This document shows positions 4,405 through 62,362 of a stretch of 64,000 nucleotides of DNA, in pieces. The position numbers and the translations under genes are program-made. The notes below the pieces were generated by a model that was not told the origin of the DNA, did no database searches, and was given only the letters and a program-made list of their open reading frames with translations. The stretch covers positions 21,803-85,802 of the forward strand of contig CAYJQH010000002.1 of the NCBI GenBank assembly GCA_964372415.1, in the 5' to 3' direction. This DNA is from an uncultured Gammaproteobacteria bacterium (lineage in GTDB: Bacteria > Patescibacteriota > Patescibacteriia > UBA9934). The number at the start of each line of letters is the position of its first letter. Position 1 is the first letter of the stretch.

Positions 4405-4492
4405 GCCCACTCTGAGAGACAGCGAAGAGTTAGGTTGGTTCGGCGAAAAAATTTCGTCTTACGACCTAACCCCTCACTTTAGTTCGGGGTGG
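4405..4492. repeat. Copy 1 of the 'E' intergenic repeat (…CGAAGAGTTAGGTTGG…CCTAACCCCTCACTTTAGTTCGGGGTGG)
   Basis: Near-identical 28-nt core shared with 8961-9033, and a related copy at 46055-46130. In all three loci it sits between two minus-strand genes, immediately 5' of the downstream gene's start. Confidence 0.7.
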
Positions 4493-4532
4493 ATTCAAAT
4501 AAATTTCAATCCAGTATACCAGCTGATGGCGG

Positions 4533-6114: not shown

Positions 6115-7716
6115 TCACAAAAGAGGGGTTCCGGTCATTTGAGGTGGCTGTTCAAGCCCAAGAATCTTTAGGAAAGTGGGGGCCACATCAGCCAGCATGC
6201 CAATTGGCGGCATAAGTGACAAATCACCGTTTGGTACATCACCAGCAATTGAGGGTTTGCCCTCAAATTCCTTGCCAACAATCCAAAATGGCACGGGGTT
6301 TGTGCTGTGCTCCTTATCTATGGCGTGGGTTTGTAAGTTTAAAACTTCTTCAGCGTTTCCGTGATCAGCAGTGATACAAACCACGCCGCCGGCTTCGAGT
6401 GTGGCCGCAACTATTTTACCCACACAATCATCTACCGTTTCTACAGCCTTGATGGTGGCAGTCACGTTTCCAGTGTGCGCTACCATGTCGGGGTTGGCAA
6501 AGTTCGCAACGATCACATCGTAATTGCCAGTTTGGATCTCTTTAACTACTCGTTCGGTAATTTGCGAGCCACTCATCGCTGGCTCTAAATCGTAACTCGC
6601 CACCTGAGGCGAGGGTATAAGCACTCTGTCTTCGTTTGCAAAAGGTTTCTCTCGTGTGCCGTTAAAAAAGAACGTCACATGGGCATACTTTTCGGTTTCG
6701 GCAATATGGAGTTGAACAAGTCCAGCATCAGAAATAACCTCGGTCAAACCTTTAGTGATCGATTCCGGCGGAAAAGCTACATCAACCGGGAGCCCCGCCT
6801 CATATTCGGTCATGGTGACAAAGGTTAAGTTTTTGATGAACTGGCGTGAGAATTTGTCGAACGATGGTAAAACAAAAGCTCTGGTTAATTGTCGAGCCCG
6901 ATCAGGTCGGTAATTAAAAAAAATTACTGCGTCCCCTTCTTTTACCGTGGCCTTGGGACGCCCAGCTTGAGTAAGAACAGTTGGTTTAAATTCCTCATCA
7001 TAAATTTCTTGGGCGTAAGATTCCTCAAGGGCCTTTAGTGGATCTTCGGCTGTGACCACACCCTGACCGTGAACAATGGCGTTATACGCCTTCTCAATTC
7101 GATCCCAACGATTATCACGGTCCATGGCAAAATAACGACCGGATAACGTAGCTAGATACCCCACGCCAAGTCTCTGAATTTTTTCAAGGAGACTTTTTAC
7201 AAAATCAAGGCCTGAGTTATAAAGCGTGTCCCGACCATCCAGAAAAGCATGCACCGCGACATCCTTGAGCTTAGCTTTTTTACACAAAGCGAGCAGTTGA
7301 TGACAATGATCATCAAACGAATGAACTTTGCCGGAAGACAGGAGTCCCATGAGGTGCAGAGTACCGCCACTTTCCTTAACCTTGGCAAAAGCTTTCTCAA
7401 AAACAGGATTTTTTTCAAAAGTCCCATCAACAATAGCTTTGTTAATTCGTGGCAAAGTTTGGTAATACACTCGGCCAGCGCCAATCGCCAAATGCCCGAC
7501 CTCAGAGTTGCCCATTTCACCCCAATTTAAACCAACATCGTCGCCCGAAGCGCGAAGAGTCATGGTTGGATAACGTTCAGTTAACATCTTAAAAGTTGGC
7601 GTGTTGGCTCTCGTAATCGCGTTTCCTTCACCGTCTGGCGCAACGCCAAAACCATCTAAGATAAGAAGAACCGCCGGACGCGGTCGCTCACCACCACGTG
7701 ATTGCTGTGTCCCCAT
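6115..7716 (-). CDS. gpmI: 2,3-bisphosphoglycerate-independent phosphoglycerate mutase
   Basis: 533 aa; LLILDGFG…NSEVGH…ITADHGN are canonical iPGM motifs. Confidence 0.9.
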   Translation of the reverse strand: MGTQQSRGGERPRPAVLLILDGFGVAPDGEGNAITRANTPTFKMLTERYPTMTLRASGDDVGLNWGEMGNSEVGHLAIGAGRVYYQTLPRINKAIVDGTFEKNPVFEKAFAKVKESGGTLHLMGLLSSGKVHSFDDHCHQLLALCKKAKLKDVAVHAFLDGRDTLYNSGLDFVKSLLEKIQRLGVGYLATLSGRYFAMDRDNRWDRIEKAYNAIVHGQGVVTAEDPLKALEESYAQEIYDEEFKPTVLTQAGRPKATVKEGDAVIFFNYRPDRARQLTRAFVLPSFDKFSRQFIKNLTFVTMTEYEAGLPVDVAFPPESITKGLTEVISDAGLVQLHIAETEKYAHVTFFFNGTREKPFANEDRVLIPSPQVASYDLEPAMSGSQITERVVKEIQTGNYDVIVANFANPDMVAHTGNVTATIKAVETVDDCVGKIVAATLEAGGVVCITADHGNAEEVLNLQTHAIDKEHSTNPVPFWIVGKEFEGKPSIAGDVPNGDLSLMPPIGMLADVAPTFLKILGLEQPPQMTGTPLL

Positions 7717-8960: not shown

Positions 8961-9033
8961 CACTCCGAGCGAATGCGAGGAGTTAGGTCGGCGTGCTGTT
9001 TGGGGAACTAACCCCTCACTTTCGTTCGGGGTG
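8961..9033. repeat. Copy 2 of the 'E' intergenic repeat
   Basis: CCACTCCGAGCGAATGCGAGGAGTTAGGTCGG…ACTAACCCCTCACTTTCGTTCGGGGTGG. Matches E1 at 26 of 28 positions in the core and E3 in the 5' half. Confidence 0.7.
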
Positions 9034-9049
9034 GCAAGTAAGGCGAACC

Positions 9050-9481
9050 TTAAATACCCATTCCTCCCAATTGTTCAGCGATCGCTGTTGAATCCTCCTC
9101 GGCCTGTTTGGCGTAAGCCTCCCAGGTCGTCTTGTCCCATAGTTCCAAACGCGTCTGAACACCGACCATGATCACTTCTTTCCGTAGTTTTGCGAACTCT
9201 CGCAAATACTCCGGCACAATAAACCTTCCTTGCTTATCAAGCTCAACAGCCATAGCGCCAGCGAGCATAAAGCGCGCAAAAGCCCTAGAGTTGGCTTGCC
9301 CCAGGGGCAAACTAGCAATTTTTTCGGCCAGTTTCCCCCACTCCTCTTTAGGGAGCAAGAAAAGTGAAGCGTCGAGACCCCGCGTCACAACTGCCCCGTT
9401 CGCGAAGGTCTCACGCAACTTCACCGGAACGGCGAGCCGCCCCTTATCGTCGATGGTGATTTGGTATTCGCCAATGAGCAT
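9050..9481 (-). CDS. mraZ: Transcriptional regulator MraZ
   Basis: 143 aa with two MraZ/SpoVT-AbrB repeats (DDKGRLAVP…; DKQGRFIVP…). Confidence 0.85.
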   Translation of the reverse strand: MLIGEYQITIDDKGRLAVPVKLRETFANGAVVTRGLDASLFLLPKEEWGKLAEKIASLPLGQANSRAFARFMLAGAMAVELDKQGRFIVPEYLREFAKLRKEVIMVGVQTRLELWDKTTWEAYAKQAEEDSTAIAEQLGGMGI

Positions 9482-9498
9482 AGCAGTGTGAATTCCAT

Positions 9499-9543
9499 GT
9501 CACGAGTAACCCATCGCCAAAGAGTTGACGGGTTACTCATGAC
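9499..9543. promoter_or_regulatory. 14-bp inverted repeat (GTCACGAGTAACCC-N17-GGGTTACTCATGAC) just upstream of mraZ
   Basis: Near-perfect inverted repeat (13 of 14) lying 18-62 nt upstream of the mraZ ATG on the minus strand. Candidate operator or promoter-embedded hairpin. Confidence 0.4.
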
Positions 9544-9809
9544 AAGGGGAAGTTTCCCGAAATTCGGACACCATTATTTGCTGCATGACTACGTTGCGGA
9601 ACTCAGATTTTTTCCTTCCGTACGGTTTAAGTACGCCTCAAAAAATCTTCCCCGCGCCTTGCCCTGCAGCAAATACTGGCGTCCTCTGTTGAACAACAGA
9701 ATAATCAGCACACCCCACTTTGTGCCGCTGAGCACCACTTTACACCATTATTTTACCAACCCAAACCAAAAACCACCTTTTCTGTGGATAAAATTTACTT
9801 TAACCTAAT

Positions 9810-20929: not shown

Positions 20930-20995
20930 AAAGGTGGGAGGTTACTCTGGTCAAACCGAATTAACAATCCCCAATAAAACAAAGCGTGGTAAAAG

Positions 20996-21024
20996 TTGAA
21001 ATTTTTCTCAACTTCAGCTATCAT
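20996..21024 (+). promoter_or_regulatory. Candidate sigma70-like promoter (TTGAAA-17-TATCAT) upstream of the tRNA-Gln leader element
   Basis: Hexamers read directly from the sequence with a 17-nt spacer. It lies ~45 nt upstream of the conserved element at 21055. Confidence 0.35.
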
Positions 21025-21054
21025 GATTACAATTTTTAACAAGAAAACGTATTA

Positions 21055-21169
21055 AGTTTCGTCAGTTACGAGGAGGAGACGAGTAAGGGCGAGGCGTACT
21101 GATAAGTACGGTGAGTCCGACGGAGTCGACGACGAAGTAAATGGCGAAACTTGGATACGTTTTCTATAC
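21055..21169 (+). ncRNA. Conserved tRNA-abutting element, copy 1 (candidate structured leader or ncRNA)
   Basis: Shares the blocks CGAGGAG…GAGGCGTAC-loop-GTACGGTGA…CCGGAGTCG…ACTTGGATA…TAC with 34156-34307 and 26277-26369, and ends exactly at the tRNA-Gln 5' end. The hairpin stem covaries between copies (GTACT/AGTAC versus GTAGT/ACTAC). Confidence 0.5.
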
Positions 21170-21243: not shown

Positions 21244-21246
21244 AAA

Positions 21247-21280
21247 AACCTCGACACAATTTCGAGGTTTTTTGTTTTTG
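21247..21280 (+). terminator. Rho-independent terminator after tRNA-Gln
   Basis: Hairpin AACCTCGACACAATTTCGAGGTT followed by TTTTTGTTTTT. Confidence 0.7.
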
Positions 21281-21417
21281 AGTTTAAGAATTTAGTATTC
21301 GAGACGAGTTTGGGTGAATGGGGAAGATTTTTCCGAAGCGTAGTTCATGCTACGGTGAGGAAAAATCGGGGCCCCATGAGGCCAAAATTGGCCGAATAAT
21401 AAATTCTCCAAAAAGAA

Positions 21418-21455
21418 GCGCCCCGGCCAGTCTGACGACTGGTCGGGGCACGTGA
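21418..21455 (-). terminator. Rho-independent terminator of the 519-aa gene
   Basis: GC hairpin CCCCGGCCAGTC…GACTGGTCGGGG, followed on the minus strand by a TTCTTTTT run. Confidence 0.6.
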
Positions 21456-21465
21456 CGGTGACCGG

Positions 21466-25976: not shown

Positions 25977-25984
25977 GCATCTCC

Positions 25985-26017
25985 CGGCTCGGACCCCTTG
26001 GTCCGAGCTGCTTTTTA
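25985..26017 (+). terminator. Rho-independent terminator of the 401-aa gene
   Basis: GCTCGGACC-CCTT-GGTCCGAGC followed by TGCTTTTT. Confidence 0.7.
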
Positions 26018-26034
26018 TGTTCGACCTCCCCTCA

Positions 26035-26100
26035 CCCCTCCTTCTTAAGGAGGGGACTGCTCACTGTTTCACCCTTTATAAGGGGGAATGAAGGGGGTCG
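26035..26100. repeat. GC-rich palindromic hairpin element (CCCCTCCTTCTTAAGGAGGGG … CCCTTTATAAGGG … GGGGGAATGAAGGGGG)
   Basis: A near-identical CCCCCTCCATTTATGGAGGGGG…GGGGGTTGGGGGAGG element is found at 62405-62440. Both lie just beyond the terminator of a GC-rich gene. Confidence 0.6.
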
Positions 26101-26107
26101 AACACAA

Positions 26108-26135
26108 AAAGCACATGCCTTCTGGCACGTGCTTT
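26108..26135. terminator. Bidirectional terminator hairpin (GCACATGCC-TTCT-GGCACGTGC, A-run on one side, T-run on the other)
   Basis: Serves the plus-strand 401-aa gene region and the minus-strand tRNA-Thr. Confidence 0.6.
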
Positions 26136-26369: not shown

Positions 26370-26444
26370 TGGAGCAGGAGACGGGACTCGAACCCGCGAC
26401 CCTTTGCTTGGGAAGCAAATGTTCTACCACTGAACTACTCCTGC
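26370..26444 (-). tRNA. tRNA-Gly (anticodon CCC), CCA encoded
   Basis: Reverse complement is GCAGGAGTAGTTCAGTGGTAGAAC…TTCCCAA…GGGTCGCGGGTTCGAGTCCCGTCTCCTGCTCCA. Confidence 0.85.
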
Positions 26445-26593
26445 GTTTTAAGCGCAAAATATATAGCACGATTTTACTATCCAGTCTAGACTAAGTCTCG
26501 GGTTTCTGCTAACCTTTAGCCGCATCGTGATCCCCATGATGCATCAAGCCAACCCTTTCCACTACAGCGCTCCCCGCGCTGAGCGGAGAGTCC

Positions 26594-28435: not shown

Positions 28436-28494
28436 ATAACTAACTAATCGGCTAATGGGCTAAACAGCTAACCAGCCTCTAAAACCAACGGCTT
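28436..28494. repeat. 8-nt periodic tandem repeat (AATCGGCT/AATGGGCT/AAACAGCT/AACCAGCC)
   Basis: Period-8 units containing GCTAA. The reverse-complement family lies at 29820-29883 on the other side of murE. Confidence 0.55.
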
Positions 28495-29814
28495 TCAGGT
28501 GTTATTGTACCCCATTCGTTTAAGTGCCGCACGCGCGACTTGGCGATCGTCCCAAGGAATTTTTTTTCCGTGAGCTACGGCCATAACAGGTTCCGATCCC
28601 TTGCCGGTAATAAGTACCGCATCCCCTTCGCGGGCGAGTGACAAGGCTTTAGCGATCGCTTCGCCGCGATCGTCAATTACAAACAAATCCAGTCCGTCTC
28701 TCTTGCCTATTTCTCGAGCCCCTTGAGCCACTTGTTCCATGATGGTTCGCGGATCATCATCATAAGGATCCTCGTTCGTCACAATAACAAAGACTTCGTT
28801 CTCGGCGGCCAATTTACCGATGAGCGGTCGACGCGCCAAATCGCGCCCGCCACCAGCTGAACCGTGAACGCCAATGAGCCGCCTCGCGCCGTGAGCTTTT
28901 GCCGCCGCCATAAGCGCCTTTAGGGCATATGGCTCATATGCGTAATCAACAATCACCGTAAATGACTGACCTTGGTTGATGAGTTCGAATCTTCCTGCCA
29001 CAGGGTGTAATGACTCGGCGGCAGTCAAAACATCGGTCAACGAATAGCCAAGACTCGCCACAGCCGCCATTGCGGCGAGTGCATTGTATCGCTCGAACTT
29101 GGCCGGCAGGGCAAGTCGACAAGGTACATTGTTAACACTGACGTCTGCCCCTTTCTCATCAACGAGCAACTCACGAGCCGCATATCCCTCGCCCGGCAGT
29201 TGCGACCAGCCGTAGTACACGTGTCTATCTGCCTTGAACTCAGCAAAATAGCGCGTGTGCTCATCATCAGCGTTTAACACACTCACCTTGAGTACTCGCT
29301 TATCGTCGATAATTTTATGAGGACGTCGCGTTAGATGATCAAATAATTTCCCTTTGGCCGCTTTGTACTTTTCGAATCCACCATGAGCTTCAATATGTTC
29401 TGGGGTTAAATTCGTAAAAACGACTTCGTCGTAATTAATGCCCAAATGACGGTATTGAGAGATCCCTTGTGAAGAACTTTCGACAACCGCATACGAACAG
29501 CCCGCAGCCACCATGTCAGACAACATTTTTTGCAACAAAAAACGACCCGGCATGGTCATCTTCATGCGGTTCTCAATGTCGCGCCCTGCAATGTTGAACC
29601 CTGCTGTCGAAGTGTAACCAACAGTCTCGCCAAGTTCGGTAAGAATCTGAGCAATAAAATTTACGGTTGACGATTTGCCGTTAGTTCCGGTCACGCCGAT
29701 AACAATGAGTTGCGATGAGGGGTTGCCATAAAACGCCGCTGCCAGTTTAGCAAGAGCAAAGTGATAAACAACCTTAATGGGCTCGGGAATGAGTTGCTTA
29801 AGCCAGTAAAGCAT
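28495..29814 (-). CDS. murE: Mur ligase, most like UDP-MurNAc-L-Ala-D-Glu:meso-DAP (or Lys) ligase MurE
   Basis: GVTGTNGKSST P-loop, TNLTPEHIEAHGGFEKY, and a C-terminal …NEDPYDDDPRT (DNPR-like) motif. Confidence 0.75.
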   Translation of the reverse strand: MLYWLKQLIPEPIKVVYHFALAKLAAAFYGNPSSQLIVIGVTGTNGKSSTVNFIAQILTELGETVGYTSTAGFNIAGRDIENRMKMTMPGRFLLQKMLSDMVAAGCSYAVVESSSQGISQYRHLGINYDEVVFTNLTPEHIEAHGGFEKYKAAKGKLFDHLTRRPHKIIDDKRVLKVSVLNADDEHTRYFAEFKADRHVYYGWSQLPGEGYAARELLVDEKGADVSVNNVPCRLALPAKFERYNALAAMAAVASLGYSLTDVLTAAESLHPVAGRFELINQGQSFTVIVDYAYEPYALKALMAAAKAHGARRLIGVHGSAGGGRDLARRPLIGKLAAENEVFVIVTNEDPYDDDPRTIMEQVAQGAREIGKRDGLDLFVIDDRGEAIAKALSLAREGDAVLITGKGSEPVMAVAHGKKIPWDDRQVARAALKRMGYNNT

Positions 29815-29819
29815 AGCCG

Positions 29820-29883
29820 GTTAGCCGGTTTGCCGATTAGCGGCGCGGATGGTTCTAACCGGCTAATCGACTAATCGACTTTA
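29820..29883. repeat. 8-nt periodic repeats in both orientations (CCGGTTAG/CCGGTTTG/CCGATTAG … TAACCGGC/TAATCGAC/TAATCGAC), forming a 9-bp inverted repeat
   Basis: GCCGGTTAG…CTAACCGGC inverted repeat plus direct octamer repeats. Lies between murD and murE. Confidence 0.55.
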
Positions 29884-31338: not shown

Positions 31339-31345
31339 ATTTTCT

Positions 31346-31384
31346 CAAGACCCAGGACTCAAGACTCTAGACTCTAGAGTCTCG
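31346..31384. repeat. Heptamer tandem array (CAAGACC CAGGACT CAAGACT CTAGACT CTAGAGT CTCG) containing the palindrome GACTCTAGAGTC
   Basis: Member of the CTAGACT/AGTCTAG family. Lies between the P-type ATPase stop and the murD start. Confidence 0.7.
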
Positions 31385-31397
31385 TGGTTGGTAATGG

Positions 31398-33920
31398 TTA
31401 AGATTGTAACAGACGAAGCTTGGTAAACTCCATGAGAAGTAATTTTACCGTTAGACCGGCTAAGAATATGGCGAATACAGTTAGTCCCGGCCAGCCCAGA
31501 TCCAGAGTTACGGTGAGACCGGGAATGAGTAGTGGCAGAAAGAGCAATAGGCCACTCACTAAAAGCGCCATTGAGAGTAGCGGATTGTTGAAAATTCGCA
31601 CCTTCCATAAAGGCTGCCGTAAAACACGAAGAACATAAATGCTAACCAAGGAATCAAGACCAAGAGCCAGAAAAACCATGGTTCTAGCTATATTCTCACT
31701 GAAGCCGAGTTCAATCGCCGCGACGTACAAAGTAACTAACATCACAACCGACAGTCCGCCAATAAACAGCGTCCACTTACCTAATTCTGAACCGATAATC
31801 GACGACCCTTTTGGTCGAGGATATTCCTTCATAATGCCTGGTTCAGCTGGCTCTGTAGCGAGCGCCATGGCGGGCAAACCGTCGGTAACTAAATTAATCC
31901 ACAGAATATGAATCGGTCCTAACGGCAAAGGAAAGCCTAAGATCAGAACGGCAGCAATAAGTGCTACCTCGCTTAAGCTAAAAGTTAACAGGTAAACTGT
32001 TACTTTGCGAATATTATCGTAAATAGTGCGACCCTCGCGTATAGCATCAATGATCACCTGAACATTACTTTCAAGAAGCACCATATCGGCAGTCTCTTTA
32101 GCGACATCAGTGCCGCTCCCGACGGCAATGCCGATTTCGGCGGCACGCAAAGCGGGAGCGTCGTTCACTCCATCCCCAGTCATAGCGACCGAGAATCCAC
32201 GTCGCTGAAAGGCTTTTACAATTCGCACCTTTTGCTCAGGCAAAACTCGCGCATAAACCCCAATATCTGCCACCAAACGTTCTAGCTCGGCATCCGATAA
32301 TGTCGTCATTTCGGTACCGGTAATTACTCTCTCACCGTTTGTGAGTAAACCGATATCGCGAGCCACCCGCTCGGCGGTTGCGGGATGATCACCGGTCACC
32401 ATAACTACGCGGATGCCAGCATTCATTGCTTGAGCAACAGTTTGTCGAGCTTCCGGTCGGAGCGGATCAGCAAGACCAATGATGCCTAGCGCAGTAAAAT
32501 CAACCATGGCCTTGACTGAAAATTCTTGCGGTACGTCATGTTGTCGCTTAGCTAGTAAAAAAAGCCGCAACCCACGCTTGGCCAAACTGTCGATTTCCGT
32601 TTCCAGACGAATTCTTGTGGCATCATCAATATCGCACCGCGCCAAGACTACCTCAGGGGCTCCCATGAGATACCAAACTACCCCGCCGTCTTCTTGAACG
32701 GCTCTAGCCGAAAATTTTCGGACTGAATCAAAAGGCAACTCAGCAATAATTTGCGCCTCCGTAAAAATACTTTCGGCCGATAAGTACTTTTGAAAGGCTG
32801 TCTGACTGGCGCTTGCCAAATCACCCTGACCACGCACAAAAAGAGATAAAGCGTGATTGATCTCTGACTTTGTCACATAATCCCTCACTTTAACCTCGAC
32901 AACAGTCATTTCGCCGGTCGTGAGCGTCCCGGTTTTATCCACACAAACTACATTAACCTGCCCCAGTGTTTCGGCGGCTAAAAGCCGTCGTACCAAAGCT
33001 TTTTTTCTAAGCATCCGTTGCATACCAGCAGTCAAAATAACGGTTAAGGCAACGCCTAAACTCTCAGGCACCACAGCTACCGCGAGGGCAGCTGCAATGG
33101 CCAAGAGGCTGGTAGTTTCAATACCACGCCAAGCGCCAAGAATAACCACAAAAGCCGCAGACAATAAGGCGATGCCAATAATCAGGCGCGACAAACCGTA
33201 AAGTTCCCTCTGTAGTGGAGTGGGCTCGGCTTGAATATTCGTCACCATACCTGCCACGCGACCAAACTCGGTGGCTGAGCCAGTTGTGACAATTACTGCC
33301 TCACCTATTCCAGCCATCACAGTTGTTCCTGCAAAAACCATTGAGGCTCGCTCAGTTATCGAGGTTTCATTAGACACCGGAAATATTTGCTTACCAACTT
33401 CGCTCGATTCTCCAGTTAAAGTTGACTCATTGACCGCTAAAAAATTCGCCACGATCAAACGGCTGTCAGCTGTAATCCTATCTCCGGCTGAAAGAACAAC
33501 TATATCGCCGGGCACCAATTCGATAGCTGATAGTCGAATCAGCTTCCCCTCGCGACGCACGGTAACCTGATATTCAAGCTTCTGCTCCAAGGCAGCCAAG
33601 GCGTGATCAGCGCGATACTCTTGGTAAAAACCAAGCAGCGTGTTACCAAGTAGAATAGCTAGGATCAAACTAGCATCAATACTCTCCCCCAGGGTAACGC
33701 TCACGGCCGCGGCGATGGCCAAGATAAAAACTAAGGGACTTTTGAGTTGACGTACTAAGTACGTAACTGTCGTCACGCGTCGTGGCTTAGGCAGTTCATT
33801 CTTGCCGTAATCCAACAGTCGCCGCTTCGCCTCCTCGGCGCTCAGCCCATCTCGGCTCACCCCCTGAGCCCGCATCACCTCCTGAACCGGCATCGCGTGC
33901 CAAGGCAAAACCTCCACCAT
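31398..33920 (-). CDS. Cation-transporting P-type ATPase (Ca2+/Mg2+-type, P2/P3-like)
   Basis: 840 aa with DKTGTLT, TGDGVNDAPAL and 10 predicted TM helices. Has the cation_ATPase N-terminus. Confidence 0.85.
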   Translation of the reverse strand: MVEVLPWHAMPVQEVMRAQGVSRDGLSAEEAKRRLLDYGKNELPKPRRVTTVTYLVRQLKSPLVFILAIAAAVSVTLGESIDASLILAILLGNTLLGFYQEYRADHALAALEQKLEYQVTVRREGKLIRLSAIELVPGDIVVLSAGDRITADSRLIVANFLAVNESTLTGESSEVGKQIFPVSNETSITERASMVFAGTTVMAGIGEAVIVTTGSATEFGRVAGMVTNIQAEPTPLQRELYGLSRLIIGIALLSAAFVVILGAWRGIETTSLLAIAAALAVAVVPESLGVALTVILTAGMQRMLRKKALVRRLLAAETLGQVNVVCVDKTGTLTTGEMTVVEVKVRDYVTKSEINHALSLFVRGQGDLASASQTAFQKYLSAESIFTEAQIIAELPFDSVRKFSARAVQEDGGVVWYLMGAPEVVLARCDIDDATRIRLETEIDSLAKRGLRLFLLAKRQHDVPQEFSVKAMVDFTALGIIGLADPLRPEARQTVAQAMNAGIRVVMVTGDHPATAERVARDIGLLTNGERVITGTEMTTLSDAELERLVADIGVYARVLPEQKVRIVKAFQRRGFSVAMTGDGVNDAPALRAAEIGIAVGSGTDVAKETADMVLLESNVQVIIDAIREGRTIYDNIRKVTVYLLTFSLSEVALIAAVLILGFPLPLGPIHILWINLVTDGLPAMALATEPAEPGIMKEYPRPKGSSIIGSELGKWTLFIGGLSVVMLVTLYVAAIELGFSENIARTMVFLALGLDSLVSIYVLRVLRQPLWKVRIFNNPLLSMALLVSGLLLFLPLLIPGLTVTLDLGWPGLTVFAIFLAGLTVKLLLMEFTKLRLLQS

Positions 33921-38757: not shown

Positions 38758-39027
38758 TTAAGCTACGGCTACAACGCGTCGGACTTCAGGAAGTCGTTTG
38801 CAAAGCGCCGTCTCAACGCCGTGTTGCAAGGTTATCGAAGAAAGGGCACAGGAAGCACAGGCGCCTGTCAGTTTGACCGTCACCGTACCCGTTGGTTCGT
38901 CAACTGAAATGAGTTCAATTCCTCCACCATGCAGACCGAGCGTCTGACGAACCTCCTCAAGGACCGCGCACACAAGATCGTGCATACGAAGCAAAGTATA
39001 GCTTAAAATCGTTAACTTTAACAACAT
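38758..39027 (-). CDS. Nfu/NifU-like Fe-S cluster scaffold domain protein
   Basis: 89 aa with …VKLTGACASCALSSITLQHGVE… (the CxxC NifU C-terminal domain). Confidence 0.7.
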   Translation of the reverse strand: MLLKLTILSYTLLRMHDLVCAVLEEVRQTLGLHGGGIELISVDEPTGTVTVKLTGACASCALSSITLQHGVETALCKRLPEVRRVVAVA

Positions 39028-39090: not shown

Positions 39091-39208
39091 TTAGACTCTA
39101 GATCCTAGACTCTAGACGCAAGTATCTAATATTGCGTCTTTGACGTCTTGTACGTCGCGATGGAGCGAGTCTAGAATCTAGGGTCTCGAGTCTTGAGTCT
39201 TGAGTCTC
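39091..39208. repeat. Large inverted array of heptamers. Left arm TAGACT CTAGATC CTAGACT CTAGAC, ~50-nt core with its own GACGCAA…TTGCGTC hairpin, right arm AGTCTAG AATCTAG GGTCTCG AGTCTTG AGTCTTG AGTCTC
   Basis: Arms are reverse complements built from the CTAGACT unit. Lies between the divergent nfu and rpmA genes and ends 4 nt before the rpmA ATG. Confidence 0.75.
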
Positions 39209-39212
39209 TTCT

Positions 39213-39485
39213 ATGGCACATAAATTAGCCCAGGGTTCAACGCGAAATGGCCGCGATTCGCAGGCCAAGCGACTCGGCGTTAAGCGCGCCGATGGCCAGG
39301 TTGTTAAAACCGGTCAAATTATTGTTCGCCAGCGCGGCACTAAAATCCATCCGTCTAAAAACGTTAGCGCCGGTAAAGACTTTACACTTTTCGCCATGAA
39401 AGATGGCAAGGTAAAGTTCAACACCAAAAAAACACCGAACTTCATTGGTAAACTCCAGGTACGAACTTTCGTCTCAGTGGTTTAA
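39213..39485 (+). CDS. rpmA: 50S ribosomal protein L27
   Basis: [25 protein letters not shown]…; 90 aa. Confidence 0.95.
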
Positions 39486-39519
39486 TAAAAATTCGAGCCT
39501 AGGCTCGAATTTTTATTTT
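39486..39519. terminator. Bidirectional terminator (AAAAATTCGAGCCTAGGCTCGAATTTTT) between convergent rpmA and pyrG
   Basis: Perfect 20-bp palindrome centred on CCTAGG and flanked by an A-run and a T-run. Overlaps the pyrG stop codon. Confidence 0.75.
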
Positions 39520-41150: not shown

Positions 41151-41177
41151 AGATTGCTAGCTACTGGCTACTAGCGG

Positions 41178-41600
41178 TTAGCCGCTAGCGGATTCAATAT
41201 TTACTCGGACTTTCGCATCGAAGCCGCTTGGAAATTCGAGATCGACCTCAAAGGTCCCGGGTTCGGTCAAGGGATCTGTTTTGATAACGTTTTTAGGCAC
41301 CGCGACATCTTGTTCTTTAAGAGCCGCCCGGATCTCTGTAGCAGTAACCGGTTTTTTAAGTTTGCCGTCTTTTACTGGCACAGAAATTGTCAGTTCCAGT
41401 CCATCGGCCGCACTCGCGAGTGACTGCTCTTCTTGTTCAGCCTTTGACGGCATCTTGGCCGGCGCTTCGGCGTTTGATTCAGAAGTTTGGACGGCAAGAA
41501 ATTGCGGAAATAAAAAATTCTTAGCGTACCCATCCGGTACCTCAATGGTTAAACCTTTTGGTCCAAGCGAGGCAACTGTCTCAAGGAGGGTGACGAACAT
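41178..41600 (-). CDS. rplI: 50S ribosomal protein L9
   Basis: N-domain …SLGPKGLTIEVPDGYAKNFLFP… and the C-domain; 140 aa. Confidence 0.8.
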   Translation of the reverse strand: MFVTLLETVASLGPKGLTIEVPDGYAKNFLFPQFLAVQTSESNAEAPAKMPSKAEQEEQSLASAADGLELTISVPVKDGKLKKPVTATEIRAALKEQDVAVPKNVIKTDPLTEPGTFEVDLEFPSGFDAKVRVNIESASG

Positions 41601-46054: not shown

Positions 46055-46130
46055 CCACTCCGAGTGAATACGAGGAGTTAGGTTGGTGCGGCGTCGTTCC
46101 TCCAAGACCCCTCGCATTCGCTCAGGGTGG
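46055..46130. repeat. Copy 3 (divergent) of the 'E' intergenic repeat
   Basis: CCACTCCGAGTGAATACGAGGAGTTAGGTTGGTGCGGCG…GACCCCTCGCATTCGCTCAGGGTGG. The 5' half is nearly identical to E2. Confidence 0.6.
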
Positions 46131-46139
46131 CTGACAGAG

Positions 46140-46685
46140 TTAGAACGGCAGGTTAAGCACCGACAGTCGCGGCGCGGCGGCGTCACGTGCCGAAAGAATC
46201 GGCGGCTGACCCTGAAGCAGAGGCCAGTTAATAGCGAGCTCAGGATCATTCCAAGCCACGTTGGCATCCGCGGCTTTATCGAATGTTTCGGTACATTTAT
46301 ACACCACTTCAGCGTCCTCAAAGGTATAAAAACCATGTCCAAAGCCGGGTGGCACCCACAACATTCTTTTGTTGGCAGCCGTTAGCTCAAGGCCAAACCA
46401 TTGTTTATAGGTTGGTGAGGCCTTACGCAGGTCGACGGCCATGTCCCAAATGCGCCCCCGCGTACAACGCACAAGCTTGCCCATCGCTTTTGGCGGCAAT
46501 TGAAAATGAATTCCGCGGAGCACACCCTTAACTGAAAACGAATGGTTGTCTTGTGAAAAATTAGTGGGCAGCCCTAAAGCGGCAAATTTATCGGCGTTAA
46601 ATGATTCATAAAAAAATCCTCGGTCATCTCCAAAGACCTCCGGTTCGATGATCAACAAACCCTCAAGGGGGTGAAGGGCCTTCAT
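46140..46685 (-). CDS. rfbC: dTDP-4-dehydrorhamnose 3,5-epimerase
   Basis: …DDRGFFYESFN…RGIHFQ…; cupin fold, 181 aa. Confidence 0.9.
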   Translation of the reverse strand: MKALHPLEGLLIIEPEVFGDDRGFFYESFNADKFAALGLPTNFSQDNHSFSVKGVLRGIHFQLPPKAMGKLVRCTRGRIWDMAVDLRKASPTYKQWFGLELTAANKRMLWVPPGFGHGFYTFEDAEVVYKCTETFDKAADANVAWNDPELAINWPLLQGQPPILSARDAAAPRLSVLNLPF

Positions 46686-51465: not shown

Positions 51466-52050
51466 CTATAACGAATACGTCATTACCGCGACGAGCGCAA
51501 ATACCAAGGACACCGCAAGAATTCCTTCACCAAAAATTATGAGTTCAGGCAGCCCGAGGGCTAAGCCAAGTAGTAAACAAGTAAATGAAGTGAATTGCAG
51601 GAACATTTTTAACTTACCCCATACGTTGGCCATCATGACCGTGCCTACATAACGAGTCGACGCCCAACGCAGTGAAGGCAGGATATCCAAAACGATGGCG
51701 CTAAAAATAATTATTGGATGGTAATACAGAAGTCCAAGAAGTATCGCAATAGAACCAATAAGCAATTTGTCGGCGATTGGATCAAAAAAAATGCCCCACG
51801 GAGTGATTTTGTTGCGTACCCTGGCGAGAGAGCCGTCAATAGCGTCGGTGAAGGCCGTAAAAATAAAAAGTGGCACACCGTAAAGATAGTTCTCAACAAA
51901 CAAAAGCCAAAGCACGAGCGGGGTCAACAAAAAACGCAGAGCCGTTACATGGTTGGGCTGCACCGCCTCCGGGATAAATGGCAAAACAATAAGCCGCATG
52001 ATACGGTCATGCGGAAGTAATTTGGAAGACCGGGTATTTTCTTTCTGCAT
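51466..52050 (-). CDS. CDP-alcohol phosphatidyltransferase family protein
   Basis: DAIDGSLAR…G…DPIADK, i.e. the D-x2-DG-x2-AR…G-x3-D-x3-D motif. Confidence 0.8.
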   Translation of the reverse strand: MQKENTRSSKLLPHDRIMRLIVLPFIPEAVQPNHVTALRFLLTPLVLWLLFVENYLYGVPLFIFTAFTDAIDGSLARVRNKITPWGIFFDPIADKLLIGSIAILLGLLYYHPIIIFSAIVLDILPSLRWASTRYVGTVMMANVWGKLKMFLQFTSFTCLLLGLALGLPELIIFGEGILAVSLVFALVAVMTYSL

Positions 52051-57653: not shown

Positions 57654-58320
57654 TGCGCTTTTTTAGCATATCAAACACGCTCAACATTGCTTTAAGCGTA
57701 GTTTGGCCCTTCGCGAGCGAAGTAATTGAGTAACGAATAGTTACCGGCACCTCCACGTAACGTAACCTTTTTGCCACGATGAGATCCAAAATTTCTGAAG
57801 CGTGAGCCATGCGGTCGAGAGTAATTTCAATCTCCTGCGCTGCCTTACGAGATAAGGCACGAAAACCGTTGTGACTATCGGTTACCCGAATGCCTGAAAA
57901 AAACATGGTAAACAGTGTGCCAACTTTAAGCATGAGGCGTCTAAACCACGGCATGTTAATCGCTTCTTTACCTAAAAATCGCGAGCCTAAAACCACGTCC
58001 GCACGTCCCATGATGATTGGCTCAAGGAGCGTTGGTATCTCCTGTCCCTCCATTTGGCCGTCGGCGTCAAAATGAACAATGATCTCAGCGTCTAAATTTT
58101 TGAGGGCAAAAATCTTGCCGGTCTCGAGCGCCGCGCCTTGTCCACGATTAATTATGTGACGCAGTACCATAGCCCCAGCCTGGCGCGCTGCGTCACTTGT
58201 TGCATCAAGACTGCCGTCATCAACGACTACCACATGATTAACAAAAAGTTTGGCGTCAGCCACCGCTTTCGCTACTCTAGATGCTTCATTGTACGCGGCT
58301 ATGATCGCAACTGATCGCAT
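57643..58320 (-). CDS. GT2 polyprenyl-phosphate glycosyltransferase (DPM1/GtrB-like)
   Basis: …IIAAYNEASRV…VVVDDGSLD…GQGAALETG…HFDADGQ… The ATG at 58320 is preferred. The ORF-track start at 58341 is a TTG that lies inside the heptamer repeat. Confidence 0.8.
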   Translation of the reverse strand: MRSVAIIAAYNEASRVAKAVADAKLFVNHVVVVDDGSLDATSDAARQAGAMVLRHIINRGQGAALETGKIFALKNLDAEIIVHFDADGQMEGQEIPTLLEPIIMGRADVVLGSRFLGKEAINMPWFRRLMLKVGTLFTMFFSGIRVTDSHNGFRALSRKAAQEIEITLDRMAHASEILDLIVAKRLRYVEVPVTIRYSITSLAKGQTTLKAMLSVFDMLKKRIVG

Positions 58321-58325
58321 AAAAT

Positions 58326-58398
58326 AAGACCCGAGACTCAAGACTCAAGTTGGCACAACTGGCCATTTTTACCACTTGGGTCTTGGGTCTGGGGTCTC
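58326..58398. repeat. Inverted heptamer array (AAGACCC GAGACT CAAGACT CAAG … CTTGGGT CTTGGGT CTGGGGT CTC)
   Basis: Reverse-complementary arms around a 27-nt spacer. Lies between the epimerase stop and the GT2 start. Confidence 0.7.
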
Positions 58399-58421
58399 AA
58401 ATACTGTACTTTCGTACCCTT

Positions 58422-59447
58422 TTATCCATTATTGGTCAAGAGAATCTTATTGGCCCTGATGTAATCAATAGTCTTTTTTAAACCGTCTTCCAAGCGTACA
58501 AGGGGCAACCAGCCCAGAGTTTCTTTGGCTTTATTAAGATTGGGTAAAGTAAGTGGAATTAGGTAAGGCGGTTGAGCCTCATAGTTTACGGCTACCTCGG
58601 CTTCAGCTAACTTCATAATCATGCGAGCTACCTCAATAATTGGTACTTCGGTGTCGCTCCCTAGGTTAATCGGCCCTATTCCTTTTTCGGTCTTCATGAG
58701 CCTCAAAAGTCCGTCAACCACATCGGTTACATAAATCAGGGCGGTAGTTGTAGCTTCGTTTCCCATGACGGCTAGCGGTTTTCCATCAAGCACATTTAAC
58801 ACAAAATCAGGCACTTGGTGACCGTGAAATAACGCCATGCGTGGCCCATAAGTGCGGAAGATACGGGCGATTTTGCAATCAATGCCATAGACGTCGGCAT
58901 AAGTGGTAAACATAGTCTCAGCAAAACGTTTGCCCTCGTTCAAGGCAGCCCGCGGATTCAGGTGATCAATAATTCCAAGCTCAGTTTCATCAACGCCATC
59001 AGAATCAACTGCGCTTCGCGCTCCATAAATGGCACCTGTTGAGGCAAGCAGCGTCTTGGCTTTATATTTGACCGCCAAATCAAGAATATTTTTTGTGCCA
59101 AGTGAATTGGTAAATAAAGTTTGCATCTTAAATTTATCGTAGGCTTTGACCGAAGTCGGCATGGCCAGGTGATAAATTTCTTGGAGACCAAGAAAACGGA
59201 ACTTAAACGCATCGAGCTCGGGAAACGATTCTAGATCGAATGGTTCATTAATGTCTAAACGCAAAAATTGAAAATCAGGATTTCTAAGCAGTGGGTCGAT
59301 GTTACGAACGTGACCGGTCGAAAAATCGTCAAGACAAATGACTCTGTTTTGAGCTCTAAGTAATGATTCACATAAGAATGAACCGATAAATCCTGCCCCG
59401 CCAGTCACGAGCACGTTTTTTTTCTCCATACCGCTACCAAGCGCCAA
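58422..59447 (-). CDS. NAD-dependent epimerase/dehydratase (UDP-glucuronate decarboxylase/UXS-like extended SDR)
   Basis: VLVTGGAGFIGSFL… Rossmann motif and a YxxxK-family fold; 341 aa. Confidence 0.75.
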   Translation of the reverse strand: MALGSGMEKKNVLVTGGAGFIGSFLCESLLRAQNRVICLDDFSTGHVRNIDPLLRNPDFQFLRLDINEPFDLESFPELDAFKFRFLGLQEIYHLAMPTSVKAYDKFKMQTLFTNSLGTKNILDLAVKYKAKTLLASTGAIYGARSAVDSDGVDETELGIIDHLNPRAALNEGKRFAETMFTTYADVYGIDCKIARIFRTYGPRMALFHGHQVPDFVLNVLDGKPLAVMGNEATTTALIYVTDVVDGLLRLMKTEKGIGPINLGSDTEVPIIEVARMIMKLAEAEVAVNYEAQPPYLIPLTLPNLNKAKETLGWLPLVRLEDGLKKTIDYIRANKILLTNNG

Positions 59448-61527: not shown

Positions 61528-61554
61528 ACCGGGACATTATACCGTATCCAAGCA

Positions 61555-61648
61555 CTAGACTCTAAACCCTAGACTCTAAAAAATTACCAAAAAACAGGTT
61601 CTTCTTGAGCTACTTGAGGCTTGAATCTAGGGTCTTGGATCTAGAGTC
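61555..61648. repeat. Inverted heptamer array (CTAGACT CTAAACC CTAGACT CTAAA … TTGAATC TAGGGTC TTGGATC TAGAGTC)
   Basis: Same CTAGACT/AGTCTAG family. Lies between the TPR-protein stop and the protease start. Confidence 0.7.
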
Positions 61649-61651
61649 GAT

Positions 61652-62362
61652 TTAGGAATTTTCACATTGCGTTTTAGCCGACGCAATATCTTGTTTTATG
61701 GCCTCATTGTCGGGTGGCAGTAAATCCTTGGCCACCTCATAGTGATCTAGTGCCCTATCGCAGTCATCGTGAGTCAAATACCATGTGGCGAGTTCGGTCA
61801 TAAACCACGGTGTTTGGCCAACACGGTCGACGCCATCTTCAAGCACTATCTTTACCTCGTCTTCTCGCGAACCGTCAGGGGGGTTATTCCGAATAGCCAT
61901 TACTAAGTCGCGATAAAACTCCTCTGTTGGATCAAGTTCAACAGCCTTGGCAAACGCCGCTTCGGCTTTGCTGTAATCCTCCATCCGAGTCAAAATTTCG
62001 CCGTAAAAATTCCAGGCTGACATGTTAATAGCGTTGAGCGTTAAGTATTCCTCAATGGTCTCGCGCGCGAGCACCAGGTCACCAAGCATAGAAGCATTCC
62101 AGGCGATTGAGGTAAACAAATCCCAGTCAACATCCTGAATGTCCATGGTGGCTTTTTGAGCTACCAAGGCCGACTGAGCTATATCGAGTTGCTGCTCATA
62201 ATACGCCCGTTCCGAATCGGTCATTTGCGCGTAATCGTCAGTTAGCACCAGACCGCGATAAGCGTAAGCGTCGGAATTAAAGTACCAAACCGCAAAGACC
62301 CCAAGAACCACCATCAATACGACGGCAATACCGGCAATAAAAACATTTCTAGAAAACGTCAT
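61652..62362 (-). CDS. Membrane-anchored TPR-repeat protein
   Basis: I prefer the start MTFSRNVFIAGIAVVLMVV at 62362. The ORF-track start at 62446 would run through the upstream terminator hairpins. Confidence 0.55.
   Translation of the reverse strand: MTFSRNVFIAGIAVVLMVVLGVFAVWYFNSDAYAYRGLVLTDDYAQMTDSERAYYEQQLDIAQSALVAQKATMDIQDVDWDLFTSIAWNASMLGDLVLARETIEEYLTLNAINMSAWNFYGEILTRMEDYSKAEAAFAKAVELDPTEEFYRDLVMAIRNNPPDGSREDEVKIVLEDGVDRVGQTPWFMTELATWYLTHDDCDRALDHYEVAKDLLPPDNEAIKQDIASAKTQCENS

Follow-up and report, generated by a model that had tools for sequence, protein, structure and literature searches.

In the 64-kb stretch of contig CAYJQH010000002.1 analysed here (the window), opposed runs of a degenerate 7-nucleotide (nt) unit, 5′-GRGTCTN-3′, lie at exactly four intergenic loci. 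Array 1 is placed between a P-type ATPase gene and murD; array 2 between a NifU-like gene and rpmA, which are divergent; array 3 between the genes for an epimerase/dehydratase and a GT2 glycosyltransferase; and array 4 between those for a tetratricopeptide repeat (TPR) protein and a subtilisin-like protease. A first-pass annotation had reported four arrays, at 31346-31384, 39091-39208, 58326-58398 and 61555-61648, and our scans found each of them where it had been placed; that they are intergenic, as also claimed, holds for 4/4 loci on the map of open reading frames (ORFs) of the window. Judged by its protein matches, the host is a Patescibacteria (Candidate Phyla Radiation, CPR) bacterium near Candidatus Uhrbacteria: the best matches to the MurD encoded in the window are at most 78 % identical, with 'Patescibacteria group' or 'Candidatus Uhrbacteria' as the named ones, and an exact-protein look-up returned no record for this MurD.

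The heptamer unit, its opposed arms and the neighbouring genes

Several measures separate the arrays from chance. The pattern AGACYCNAGAC matches 9 times in the window against 0.13 expected, with 0/100 shuffles reaching 9; Tandem Repeats Finder gives a period of 7 for each array; and a self-similarity scan gives 4 regions of period 7 against 0 in shuffles, together with 3 of period 8 against 0.1. A position-weight scan, which is partly circular because its matrix was built from the arrays' own units, picks out exactly the four array loci, each on both strands, against 0.1-0.4 in shuffles. Two Logan contigs of run ERR4904390 (L367 and L125), from an assembly that agrees with the window at 99.96 % identity over 4.7 kb, are 100 % identical to it through arrays 2 and 4, and the arrays are therefore not assembly artefacts.

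Table 1. Positions in the window of the heptamer arrays and of the other repeated or palindromic spacer features.
Feature	Position	Strand	Sequence	Relation to genes
Array 1	31344-31386	-	minus reads CAC GAGACTC TAGAGTC TAGAGTC TTGAGTC CTGGGTC TTGAG	begins 11 nt past P-type ATPase stop (31398-31400); ends before murD ATG (31338)
Array 2, left arm	39091-39119	-	plus strand TTAGACTC TAGATCC TAGACTC TAGACGC	minus-strand GRGTCTN units run toward divergent NifU-like gene
Array 2, spacer	39120-39165		not common to other arrays	
Array 2, right arm	39166-39208	+	GAGTCTA GAATCTA GGGTCTC GAGTCTT GAGTCTT GAGTCTC (six units)	ends before rpmA ATG (39213)
Array 3, left arm	58326-58349	-	plus AAGACCC GAGACTC AAGACTC AAG; minus GAGTCTT GAGTCTC GGGTCTT	gene-proximal; followed by ATTTT and GT2 (PpgS-like) ATG at 58320
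Array 3, right arm	58375-58398	+	CTT GGGTCTT GGGTCTG GGGTCTC	5′ arm in sense of minus-strand gene; begins 23 nt past epimerase/dehydratase stop (58422-58424)
Array 4, gene-proximal arm	61555-61579	-	minus strand TTAGAGTCTAGGGTTTAGAGTCTAG	ends 13 nt upstream of TATAAT (61541-61536), box 8 nt before protease ATG (61527)
Array 4, distal arm	61613-61648	+	CTT GAGGCTT GAATCTA GGGTCTT GGATCTA GAGTC	in gene sense, begins 3 nt past TPR gene stop (61652-61654)
Solo site	26483-26507	+	palindrome AGTCTAGACT (10 nt, 26483-26492), then AAGTCTC GGGTTTC	39-63 nt upstream of tRNA-Gly (26370-26444, minus)
8-nt-unit array	29814-29881	-	AGTCGATT AGTCGATT AGCCGGTT AG, 14 nt, CTAATCGG CAAACCGG CTAACCGG CT	directly adjoins ATG of Mur-ligase gene 28495-29814
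One-arm array	28440-28475		(NNNTTAGC)n	before divIC-like ATG (28435)
One-arm array	41151-41190		(NNNTTAGC)n	before pyrG
~85-nt element	4411-4495	-	CCACCCCGAACGAAAGTGAGGGGT ... CCTAACTCCTCGCATTCNCTCGGAGTGG	directly upstream of unknown 282-aa ORF
~85-nt element	8964-9045	-	as above	directly upstream of rsmH
~85-nt element	46059-46140	-	as above	directly upstream of rmlD-like gene
17 + 17 nt palindrome	39484-39517		AATAAAAATTCGAGCCT / AGGCTCGAATTTTTATT	between convergent rpmA and pyrG
21-nt inverted repeat	9495-9547		CCATGTCACGAGTAACCCATC / GACGGGTTACTCATGACAAGG	just upstream of mraZ

When 28 units are aligned, the first position is G in 28/28 and the second is a purine but for one unit (A17, G10, C1); G (24), T (27), C (27) and T (26) follow, and the seventh is free (A13, T10, C4, G1), so that variation is confined to positions 2 and 7. 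In each of arrays 2-4 the AGAC-sense arm is separated from the GTCT-sense arm by 25-46 nt of unrelated spacer sequence, and each arm has 3-6 heptads. The first-pass annotation had ascribed this two-arm layout with a spacer to every array; array 1 departs from it in having neither spacer nor second arm, one AGAC-sense unit being followed directly by 4-5 GTCT-sense units, and the junction between them, GACTCTAGAGTC, is a palindrome of 12 nt. Within the spacer of array 2 are two small hairpins and two more units of the GTCT type (GCGTCTT and GACGTCTT), and by eye also the -35/-10-like hexamers TTGACG and TTGTAC-18-TAGAAT, whose TAGAAT lies inside the right arm; these fall below the threshold of the promoter scan. 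The palindromic unit that had been noted near tRNA-Gly, at 26484-26503, corresponds to the 10-nt palindrome AGTCTAGACT with two degenerate units after it, and this solo site is alone too short to separate from chance.

The arms are reverse-complementary (90 % over 20 nt in array 2, 77 % over 22 nt in array 4), and in folding models the spacer, as DNA or as RNA, can form a 20-25 bp hairpin broken every 7 nt. On the plus and minus strands respectively, the RNA folds reach -50.4 and -49.7 kcal/mol for array 2 (z-scores -4.8 and -6.1), -44.3 and -37.8 kcal/mol for array 3 (z -10.5 and -6.4) and -28.1 and -31.6 kcal/mol for array 4 (z -2.3 and -3.2); folded as DNA, arrays 2 and 3 are still significant (z -3.7 and -8.3). 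The long imperfect hairpins proposed for the arrays at first reading are thus predicted for arrays 2, 3 and 4, with RNA z-scores down to -10.5, and not for array 1, whose fold is not significant (z about -1). From the folds and arm sequences, the breaks that recur in the stems at intervals of about 7 nt appear to arise because the variable positions of one arm do not match those of the other; the same period of interruption is seen in the fold of an array of a relative, L001a, which is described below. One rare core variant is common to the paired units of array 2, AGAT standing opposite ATCT.

In gene sense, every array runs 5′-(AGACYCN)n ... (GRGTCTN)n-3′ and then into the downstream gene; in the nearest relative, too, it is always the GTCT-sense arm that faces the downstream start. 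Between the end of this arm and the ATG there are 5 nt in array 1, 4 nt in array 2 and 5 nt in array 3, the 4 nt before rpmA being as the first-pass annotation had it. These three arrays have no Shine-Dalgarno sequence beyond the GAG/GGG of the last unit, 5-9 nt from the ATG; in array 2 the last GAG is 8 nt from the rpmA ATG, with no stronger Shine-Dalgarno sequence. The gene-proximal arm of array 4 lies instead upstream of a TATAAT box which, by its position before the protease ATG, looks like a leaderless-type promoter, and which is kept as ACGGTATACT in a relative (L126) that is without the array.

A scan for sigma-70 promoters and terminators inside the arrays gave nothing but a U-tract after array 3, although TAGAAT, TAGACT and TAGAGT within arrays resemble -10 boxes by eye, with poor spacing to any -35. 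An Rfam scan of the window put only four tRNAs above the gathering score; the arrays match no family, the region of array 2 giving a single chance-level miRNA match (E = 0.84).

The heptamer arrays share the window with other structured spacers. Of the 26 spacers of at least 35 nt, 18 reach z <= -2.5 in folding (best strand against mononucleotide shuffles), so that a structured spacer is the norm in the window and the heptamer arrays are one way to make it; the strongest folds are at 21244-21465 (z -11.5), 58321-58421 (-9.9), 25977-26135 (-9.4) and 20930-21169 (-6.5), and several of the strongest-folding spacers adjoin tRNA genes. A second family has the same architecture with an 8-nt unit, (AGYCGRTT)3 ... 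(CWAAYCGG)3, which folds at -28.4 kcal/mol (z = -2.7) and is accompanied by two one-arm arrays. A third consists of the ~85-nt palindromic element, three copies of which share a consensus hairpin of 31 bp; the 3′ end of each copy gives an apparent GTG start, and the element has no credible Rfam match, only chance-level miRNA matches. The perfect palindrome between rpmA and pyrG looks, by its sequence, like an ordinary intrinsic terminator of the bidirectional kind, and the genome thus has canonical terminators as well. The inverted repeat at 9495-9547 accompanies mraZ (9050-9481), which heads a division/cell-wall cluster.

Many first genes of the window have a -10-like box (TATAAT, TAGAAT, TATACT or TACAAT) 6-9 nt before the ATG and no Shine-Dalgarno sequence, for example at 61536-61541 and 38995-39000 and upstream of ORFs 6115-7716, 51466-52050 and 1178-2206, which suggests frequent leaderless mRNAs. 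The start of the NifU-like gene is probably at 38985 rather than 39027.

Turnover in relatives and distribution in other genomes

ATPase-murD synteny is kept in three relatives (L001, L002 and L004; MurD 74-78 % identical, L001 being the nearest at 78 %) and TPR-protease-epimerase-GT2 synteny in L126 (protease 60 % identical), while the orthologous spacers of all four are without an array, as is the rpmA-nifU spacer of L004. These array-free spacers rule out positional conservation of the arrays. The nearest relative does have arrays of the form G-N-G-T-C-T-N (GCGTCTT, GAGTCTA, GTGTCTG), at other spacers: L001a is an inverted pair between divergent genes, with a significant fold and placed upstream of TATACT, and L001b has one arm only, in GTCT sense, with 7 nt between its end and the ftsX ATG. 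The same grammar thus appears at other loci of L001, and we conclude that the unit grammar is conserved while the loci turn over. The first-pass annotation had reasoned that arrays absent elsewhere would be a local coincidence; related arrays are present both in the nearest relative and in many metagenome contigs.

Scanning 185,579 species genomes for four copies of GTCTNGN gave at least 120 loci (L005-L124), and the matches listed come from Planctomycetota, Verrucomicrobiota, Acidobacteriota, Gemmatimonadota, Bacteroidota, Chloroflexota, Patescibacteria and others. This breadth has a plain reading. In viral contigs the same pattern gave at least 120 matches and a control with a scrambled core, GCTTNGN x4, also at least 120; since the control too reaches that figure, the breadth reflects generic heptamer-repeat abundance, and a special pan-bacterial GTCT family is ruled out. 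Of the bacterial GTCT-core arrays among the 120 loci listed, 28 % are accompanied within 120 nt by an inverted partner, against 5-13 % when fake partners are used; in the listed viral matches the figure is 6-7 %. In other phyla, again among the matches listed, 108 arrays are intergenic against 35 inside crude ORFs, and the genome-scan loci listed have no overall sense bias. A general 'XXXXNXN' rule for such arrays was rejected, since the circular distance between the two variable positions is 1, 2 and 3 in 62, 21 and 32 of the arrays among those listed. The control scan also returned (GCTTGNN)n arrays in many viral contigs (L320-L349 and others), in which five core nt are fixed and the two variable positions lie side by side; from their sequences these look like a separate, abundant phage-associated family.

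A metagenome scan for three copies of GAGTCTN gave at least 120 loci (L368-L487). Four low-GC contigs (L418, L439, L444 and L395) repeat the window layout, their arrays ending 0-5 nt before an ATG, and among the listed matches on contigs of <52 % GC, arms that come within 40 nt of a start are GTCT-sense in 5 cases and AGAC-sense in 1. The polarity of inverted pairs tracks base composition in the metagenome and genome matches listed: contigs of >52 % GC mostly have GTCT..AGAC pairs, 28 against 4, and those of <42 % GC have AGAC..GTCT pairs, 4 against 0.

As a rule for the family, the claim that such arrays never lie in coding sequence does not hold. Among the matches listed from the genome scan, four Patescibacteria loci have arrays in frame inside long ORFs. 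Three of them are (AGACTCN)4 arrays (L043 6655-6693, L046 2038-2062 and L071 3832-3856, the last in a Saccharibacteria metagenome-assembled genome, MAG), in ORFs which from our reading of their sequences appear to be MurE-like, RNR-like (by sequence motifs) and Pol I-like respectively; the arrays of L043 and L046 encode KTQDSR-type linker peptides. The fourth, L061 3485-3552 in Peribacteria MAG contig CAZQCB010000021.1, is an inverted heptamer pair in frame in the gene for isoleucyl-tRNA synthetase (IleRS): (AGACACG)4, 15 nt, then four GTCTCA(C/A) units of which the last is partial. Compared with solved IleRS structures it forms a 16-18 aa insertion between the conserved motifs HYPFE and FPADFIAEG, and as RNA it folds at -24.6 kcal/mol (z = -3.6). 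Such in-ORF copies argue for a generative process over a purely regulatory origin.

Proposed origin and possible effects of the arrays

We favour, with belief and doubt about evenly balanced, the explanation that these are slippage/template-switch heptanucleotide repeats of a known class, in which the 3′ arm would act as a weak initiation region open to sequestration by the 5′ arm. Replication slippage would create and resize the arrays, and arm-to-arm template switching or inverted duplication would most likely yield the second, reverse-complement arm; arrays would then persist where a 7-nt unit is harmless, either in gene spacers or, in other Patescibacteria, in in-frame protein loops, with fast turnover. 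The 3′ arm would serve as the translation-initiation region of the next gene, with GAG/GGG as a weak Shine-Dalgarno-like element 5-9 nt before the ATG, and CUC/CCC of the 5′ arm could sequester it. The likely effect in cis would be a structural punctuation of operons: the upstream message would carry a stem-loop at its 3′ end, and the downstream start would be masked until the stem opens, for example when ribosomes reach the end of the upstream gene, 3-23 nt away. We infer, accordingly with the same caution, a mutational origin, transcription of the arrays, and effects on termination, mRNA stability or translation. On this explanation the arrays are not a conserved, dedicated regulatory system.

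Several observations weigh against this explanation. Array 4 lies upstream of an apparent leaderless promoter and therefore cannot mask the protease start, and arrays 2 and L001a separate divergent genes, an arrangement that calls for no read-through transcript. Array 3, read on the minus strand, is followed by the U-tract CTTATTTTAT, and arrays 1, 2 and 4 are without one. As we read the folds and arm sequences, changes at variable positions of one arm are not compensated in the other, and G·U asymmetry fails to mark the sense strand, array 3 favouring the antisense and array 4 the sense, so that as a pointer to the transcribed strand it was discarded as inconsistent. Arrays 2 and 4 are identical in the sole near-identical second assembly (ERR4904390), with no length polymorphism seen in them. 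Finally, G is fixed at position 1 (28/28), positions 3-6 are kept in 24-27 of 28 units, and the grammar is kept in L001. A fixed core with free positions 2 and 7, a grammar shared across species, the lack of compensation and a lineage-specific polarity are not predicted by plain slippage or by hairpin selection alone; these four misfits keep a heptad-reading protein in play, whether ω-like with a ribbon-helix-helix (RHH) fold on duplex DNA or of the cold-shock/OB-fold type on single strands, while the in-frame copies and the presence/absence pattern keep in play an origin from mobile elements.

That the arrays might be operator- or centromere-like sites for a cooperative binder of double-stranded DNA, with one heptad per dimer of an ω/ParB-like RHH protein, is unlikely on our analysis; it is a form of the suggestion in the first-pass annotation that the arrays present half-sites to a DNA-binding protein. 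MetJ reads tandem 8-bp met boxes similarly. Much of the unit grammar would suit such a protein: a fixed core with two degenerate positions, conserved in L001 while sites turn over; variable positions that are uncompensated between arms; units in both direct and inverted orientation; and a motif that is not dispersed as singletons, as if only tandem copies mattered. The arrays also abut or overlap promoter-like elements (TATAAT beside array 4, TAGAAT within array 2, TATACT downstream of L001a), the parallel 8-nt family could have its own reader, and there is a precedent in the ω heptads (PMC9499535). However, the window arms are held 25-46 nt apart by unrelated spacers, where ω takes at least 4 contiguous heptads, and the putative targets would be unrelated housekeeping genes. 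The in-frame ORF copies of other Patescibacteria and the similar arrays with many other cores across phyla also tell against it; and no candidate was found among the 20 window ORFs scanned against Pfam, in which only MraZ appeared, whose known sites we take to differ from the window heptad.

Less probable still is a reader of single strands: each heptamer of a tandem array would dock one protomer of a protein with a single OB fold, for instance a cold-shock protein (Csp), on single-stranded RNA (or DNA). To the same small degree we entertain the corollary that this protein would keep or make the initiation region of Shine-Dalgarno-poor genes accessible, with the 5′ arm competing as an antagonist hairpin. 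Bacillus subtilis CspB binds a heptanucleotide of consensus GTCTTTG/T, with a strong preference for C3 and for T at positions 2, 4 and 6 (PMC1904285). Set in that register the window unit reads G-T-C-T-[T/A/C]-G-[A/G], which is the same at positions 1-4, often at 5, and is degenerate at 5 and 7, but has G and not T at position 6; the match, moreover, rests on one Firmicute protein. In the window lineage the GTCT strand is the mRNA-sense strand beside start codons, and Csp or S1 has been proposed for TAACTGA repeats in a like position (MacGregor 2015, PMC4679880). Elsewhere it is the AGAC-sense arm that lies next to starts, in 11 against 4 high-GC contigs and 19 against 11 genome loci among the matches listed, and the in-ORF copies are mostly AGAC-sense in mRNA. 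Heptamer families elsewhere have unrelated cores (GGGAATC, TAACTGA, GCTTGNN), and a cold-shock-domain gene was looked for in the window and not found.

An origin as small non-autonomous mobile or hairpin-templated elements, of the REPIN, miniature inverted-repeat transposable element (MITE) or Rickettsia palindromic element (RPE) kind, with heptamer-array termini and inserted as a unit, seems equally improbable. Copies of REP/BIME elements in intercistronic positions can make the upstream mRNA more stable, and Rickettsia palindromic elements are found inserted within genes as well, in frame. Insertion as a unit would fit the presence of both arms where relatives have no array, the in-frame inverted pair that makes a 16-18 aa insertion in the Peribacteria IleRS, and the TATTT found on both sides of array 3, and the host genome does hold a dispersed palindromic element, of 85 nt, in three copies. 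But the inter-arm spacers share no sequence, arm lengths and unit order differ at every locus, some arrays have a single arm (array 1, L001b), no target-site duplication was found at arrays 2 and 4, and the window ORFs scanned include no transposase or RAYT gene. Membership of the MITE or REPIN classes was rejected, the spacers being unrelated, a possible TATTT duplication being confined to array 3 and no transposase being found in the scanned ORFs.

Very improbable, lastly, are restriction-modification or methylation signals (GANTC, GAGTC, TCTAGA) and DNA-uptake sequences: units do contain GAGTC, plus TCTAGA when position 7 is A, and CPR bacteria depend on DNA uptake, but the link to restriction-modification or GANTC that the first-pass annotation had raised is rejected on ordinary word counts (GAGTC 56, GACTC 44 and GANTC 212 in the 64 kb, about as base composition predicts), and uptake signals are dispersed single copies and not tandem arrays. 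GRGTCT itself occurs 50 times in the window against 44 expected, 23 in arrays and 27 outside, so that singletons are if anything depleted; 27 outside arrays against ~44 expected for the whole window led us to reject an uptake-signal or dispersed-site model.

Returning to what the arrays might mean, slippage/template-switch repeats with a maskable initiation region remain our preferred explanation, and if the arrays are only a by-product of slippage the finding is an ordinary one. An unlikely but wider idea is that GRGTCTN heptads are a protein-read code across Patescibacteria, in which the unit would be the footprint of one protomer (a cold-shock/OB-fold protein on single-stranded RNA, or an ω-like RHH protein on duplex DNA) and the inverted arm a built-in competitor hairpin; if this were true, the prokaryotic excess of 7-nt repeats would be the footprint of a heptad-reading protein and not of polymerase slippage. 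In bacterial genomes, heptanucleotide arrays belong to the most abundant of the repeats that lack an explanation, and the window arrays add a family in the streamlined CPR/Patescibacteria, where non-coding DNA is scarce and retained spacer sequence is thus more likely to matter. They offer three handles: a constant grammar with locus turnover; a fixed polarity, the GTCT-sense arm stopping 4-5 nt short of start codons without a strong Shine-Dalgarno sequence; and arrays in frame within essential genes of related lineages. With these it should be possible to distinguish between a slippage by-product, a translation-gating RNA hairpin and a heptad-reading protein.

Relation to known repeat classes

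The window arrays are a new family of an already known class of intergenic heptanucleotide repeats. A search of the literature for the literal window repeat strings found no paper, but the statement of the first-pass annotation that no described repeat family has this architecture is wrong, as Xanthomonas has inverted heptamer pairs (PMC4692102). It was correct in setting CRISPR aside: each locus has contiguous units of 7 nt, a single spacer and arms of opposite orientation. REPINs, dispersed hairpin-forming spacer elements often found as inverted pairs (PMC3116915), are also different, since REP units are conserved palindromes of 20-40 nt mobilised by RAYT, whereas the window arms are tandem heptamers with unrelated spacers between them.

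Heptanucleotides are the most abundant class of long simple sequence repeats (SSRs) in many prokaryotes, for which polymerase slippage has been hypothesised (Mrázek 2007, as related in PMC4679880 and PMC4692102). The window arrays have the features of this class, namely tandem 7-nt units in at least 3 copies, a non-coding bias, a lineage-specific consensus and turnover between relatives. They resemble both the long SSRs of Mrázek et al. 2007 and the short tandemly repeated repetitive (STRR) heptamers of Calothrix in the 7-nt unit and the intergenic position; as far as these surveys are related in later papers, they deal with perfect or near-perfect direct arrays, and inverted pairs and position-specific degeneracy are not addressed in what is related there.

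The closest parallel in a protein-read system is the ω (ParB) protein of plasmid pSM19035, which binds 7-bp WATCACW heptads, direct and inverted, 7-10 per site, at promoters; one RHH dimer binds each heptad and at least 4 contiguous heptads are required (PMC9499535). The core-plus-degenerate-ends pattern of the window arrays is ω-like and their 3-6 heptads per arm would be compatible, but ω heptads are contiguous, on a plasmid and at three specific promoters, whereas the window arms are split by a spacer of 25-46 nt.

In their position, the arrays recall the TAACTGA repeats of marine Beggiatoaceae, some cyanobacteria and Bacteroidetes, which lie a few nt upstream of starts, replacing the Shine-Dalgarno sequence (MacGregor 2015, PMC4679880), and for which S1, Csp or CsrA have been proposed as readers (PMC4679880). 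Like the window arrays these are 2-6 heptamer copies before housekeeping genes, including ribosomal protein genes. However, TAACTGA repeats are near-perfect and almost always direct (one indirect among 170 sets), while the window arrays are degenerate and mostly have an inverted arm.

In architecture, the nearest known system is that of Xanthomonas, whose genomes each hold 183-186 (GGGANTN)n arrays, 89-93 % of them intergenic (Rehm et al. 2015, PMC4692102), including 70-75 convergent inverted heptamer pairs per genome with the potential to form stem-loops or cruciforms (PMC4692102). Array lengths there differ between sister species, and a function was not found (PMC4692102). Inverted pairs of the Xanthomonas type are formed by arrays 2, 3 and 4, and array 1 has only a palindromic junction. 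There are clear differences: the window unit is not G-rich and cannot form a G-quadruplex, unlike the units of Xanthomonas and Nostoc; the window arrays abut start codons, whereas those of Xanthomonas and Nostoc lie mainly behind stop codons; and the host is, unlike these, a small-genome CPR bacterium, with four loci within the 64-kb window. Nevertheless the likeness to Xanthomonas (GGGAATC)n and Nostoc (GGGGA(C/T)T)n repeats extends to array size and placement (2 to ~26 units, near gene ends, beside genes of all functional classes) and to the unit itself, which in all three has a fixed core and two variable positions; GGGANTN of Xanthomonas and the window unit, when rotated to GTCTNGN, both conserve positions 1-4 and 6.

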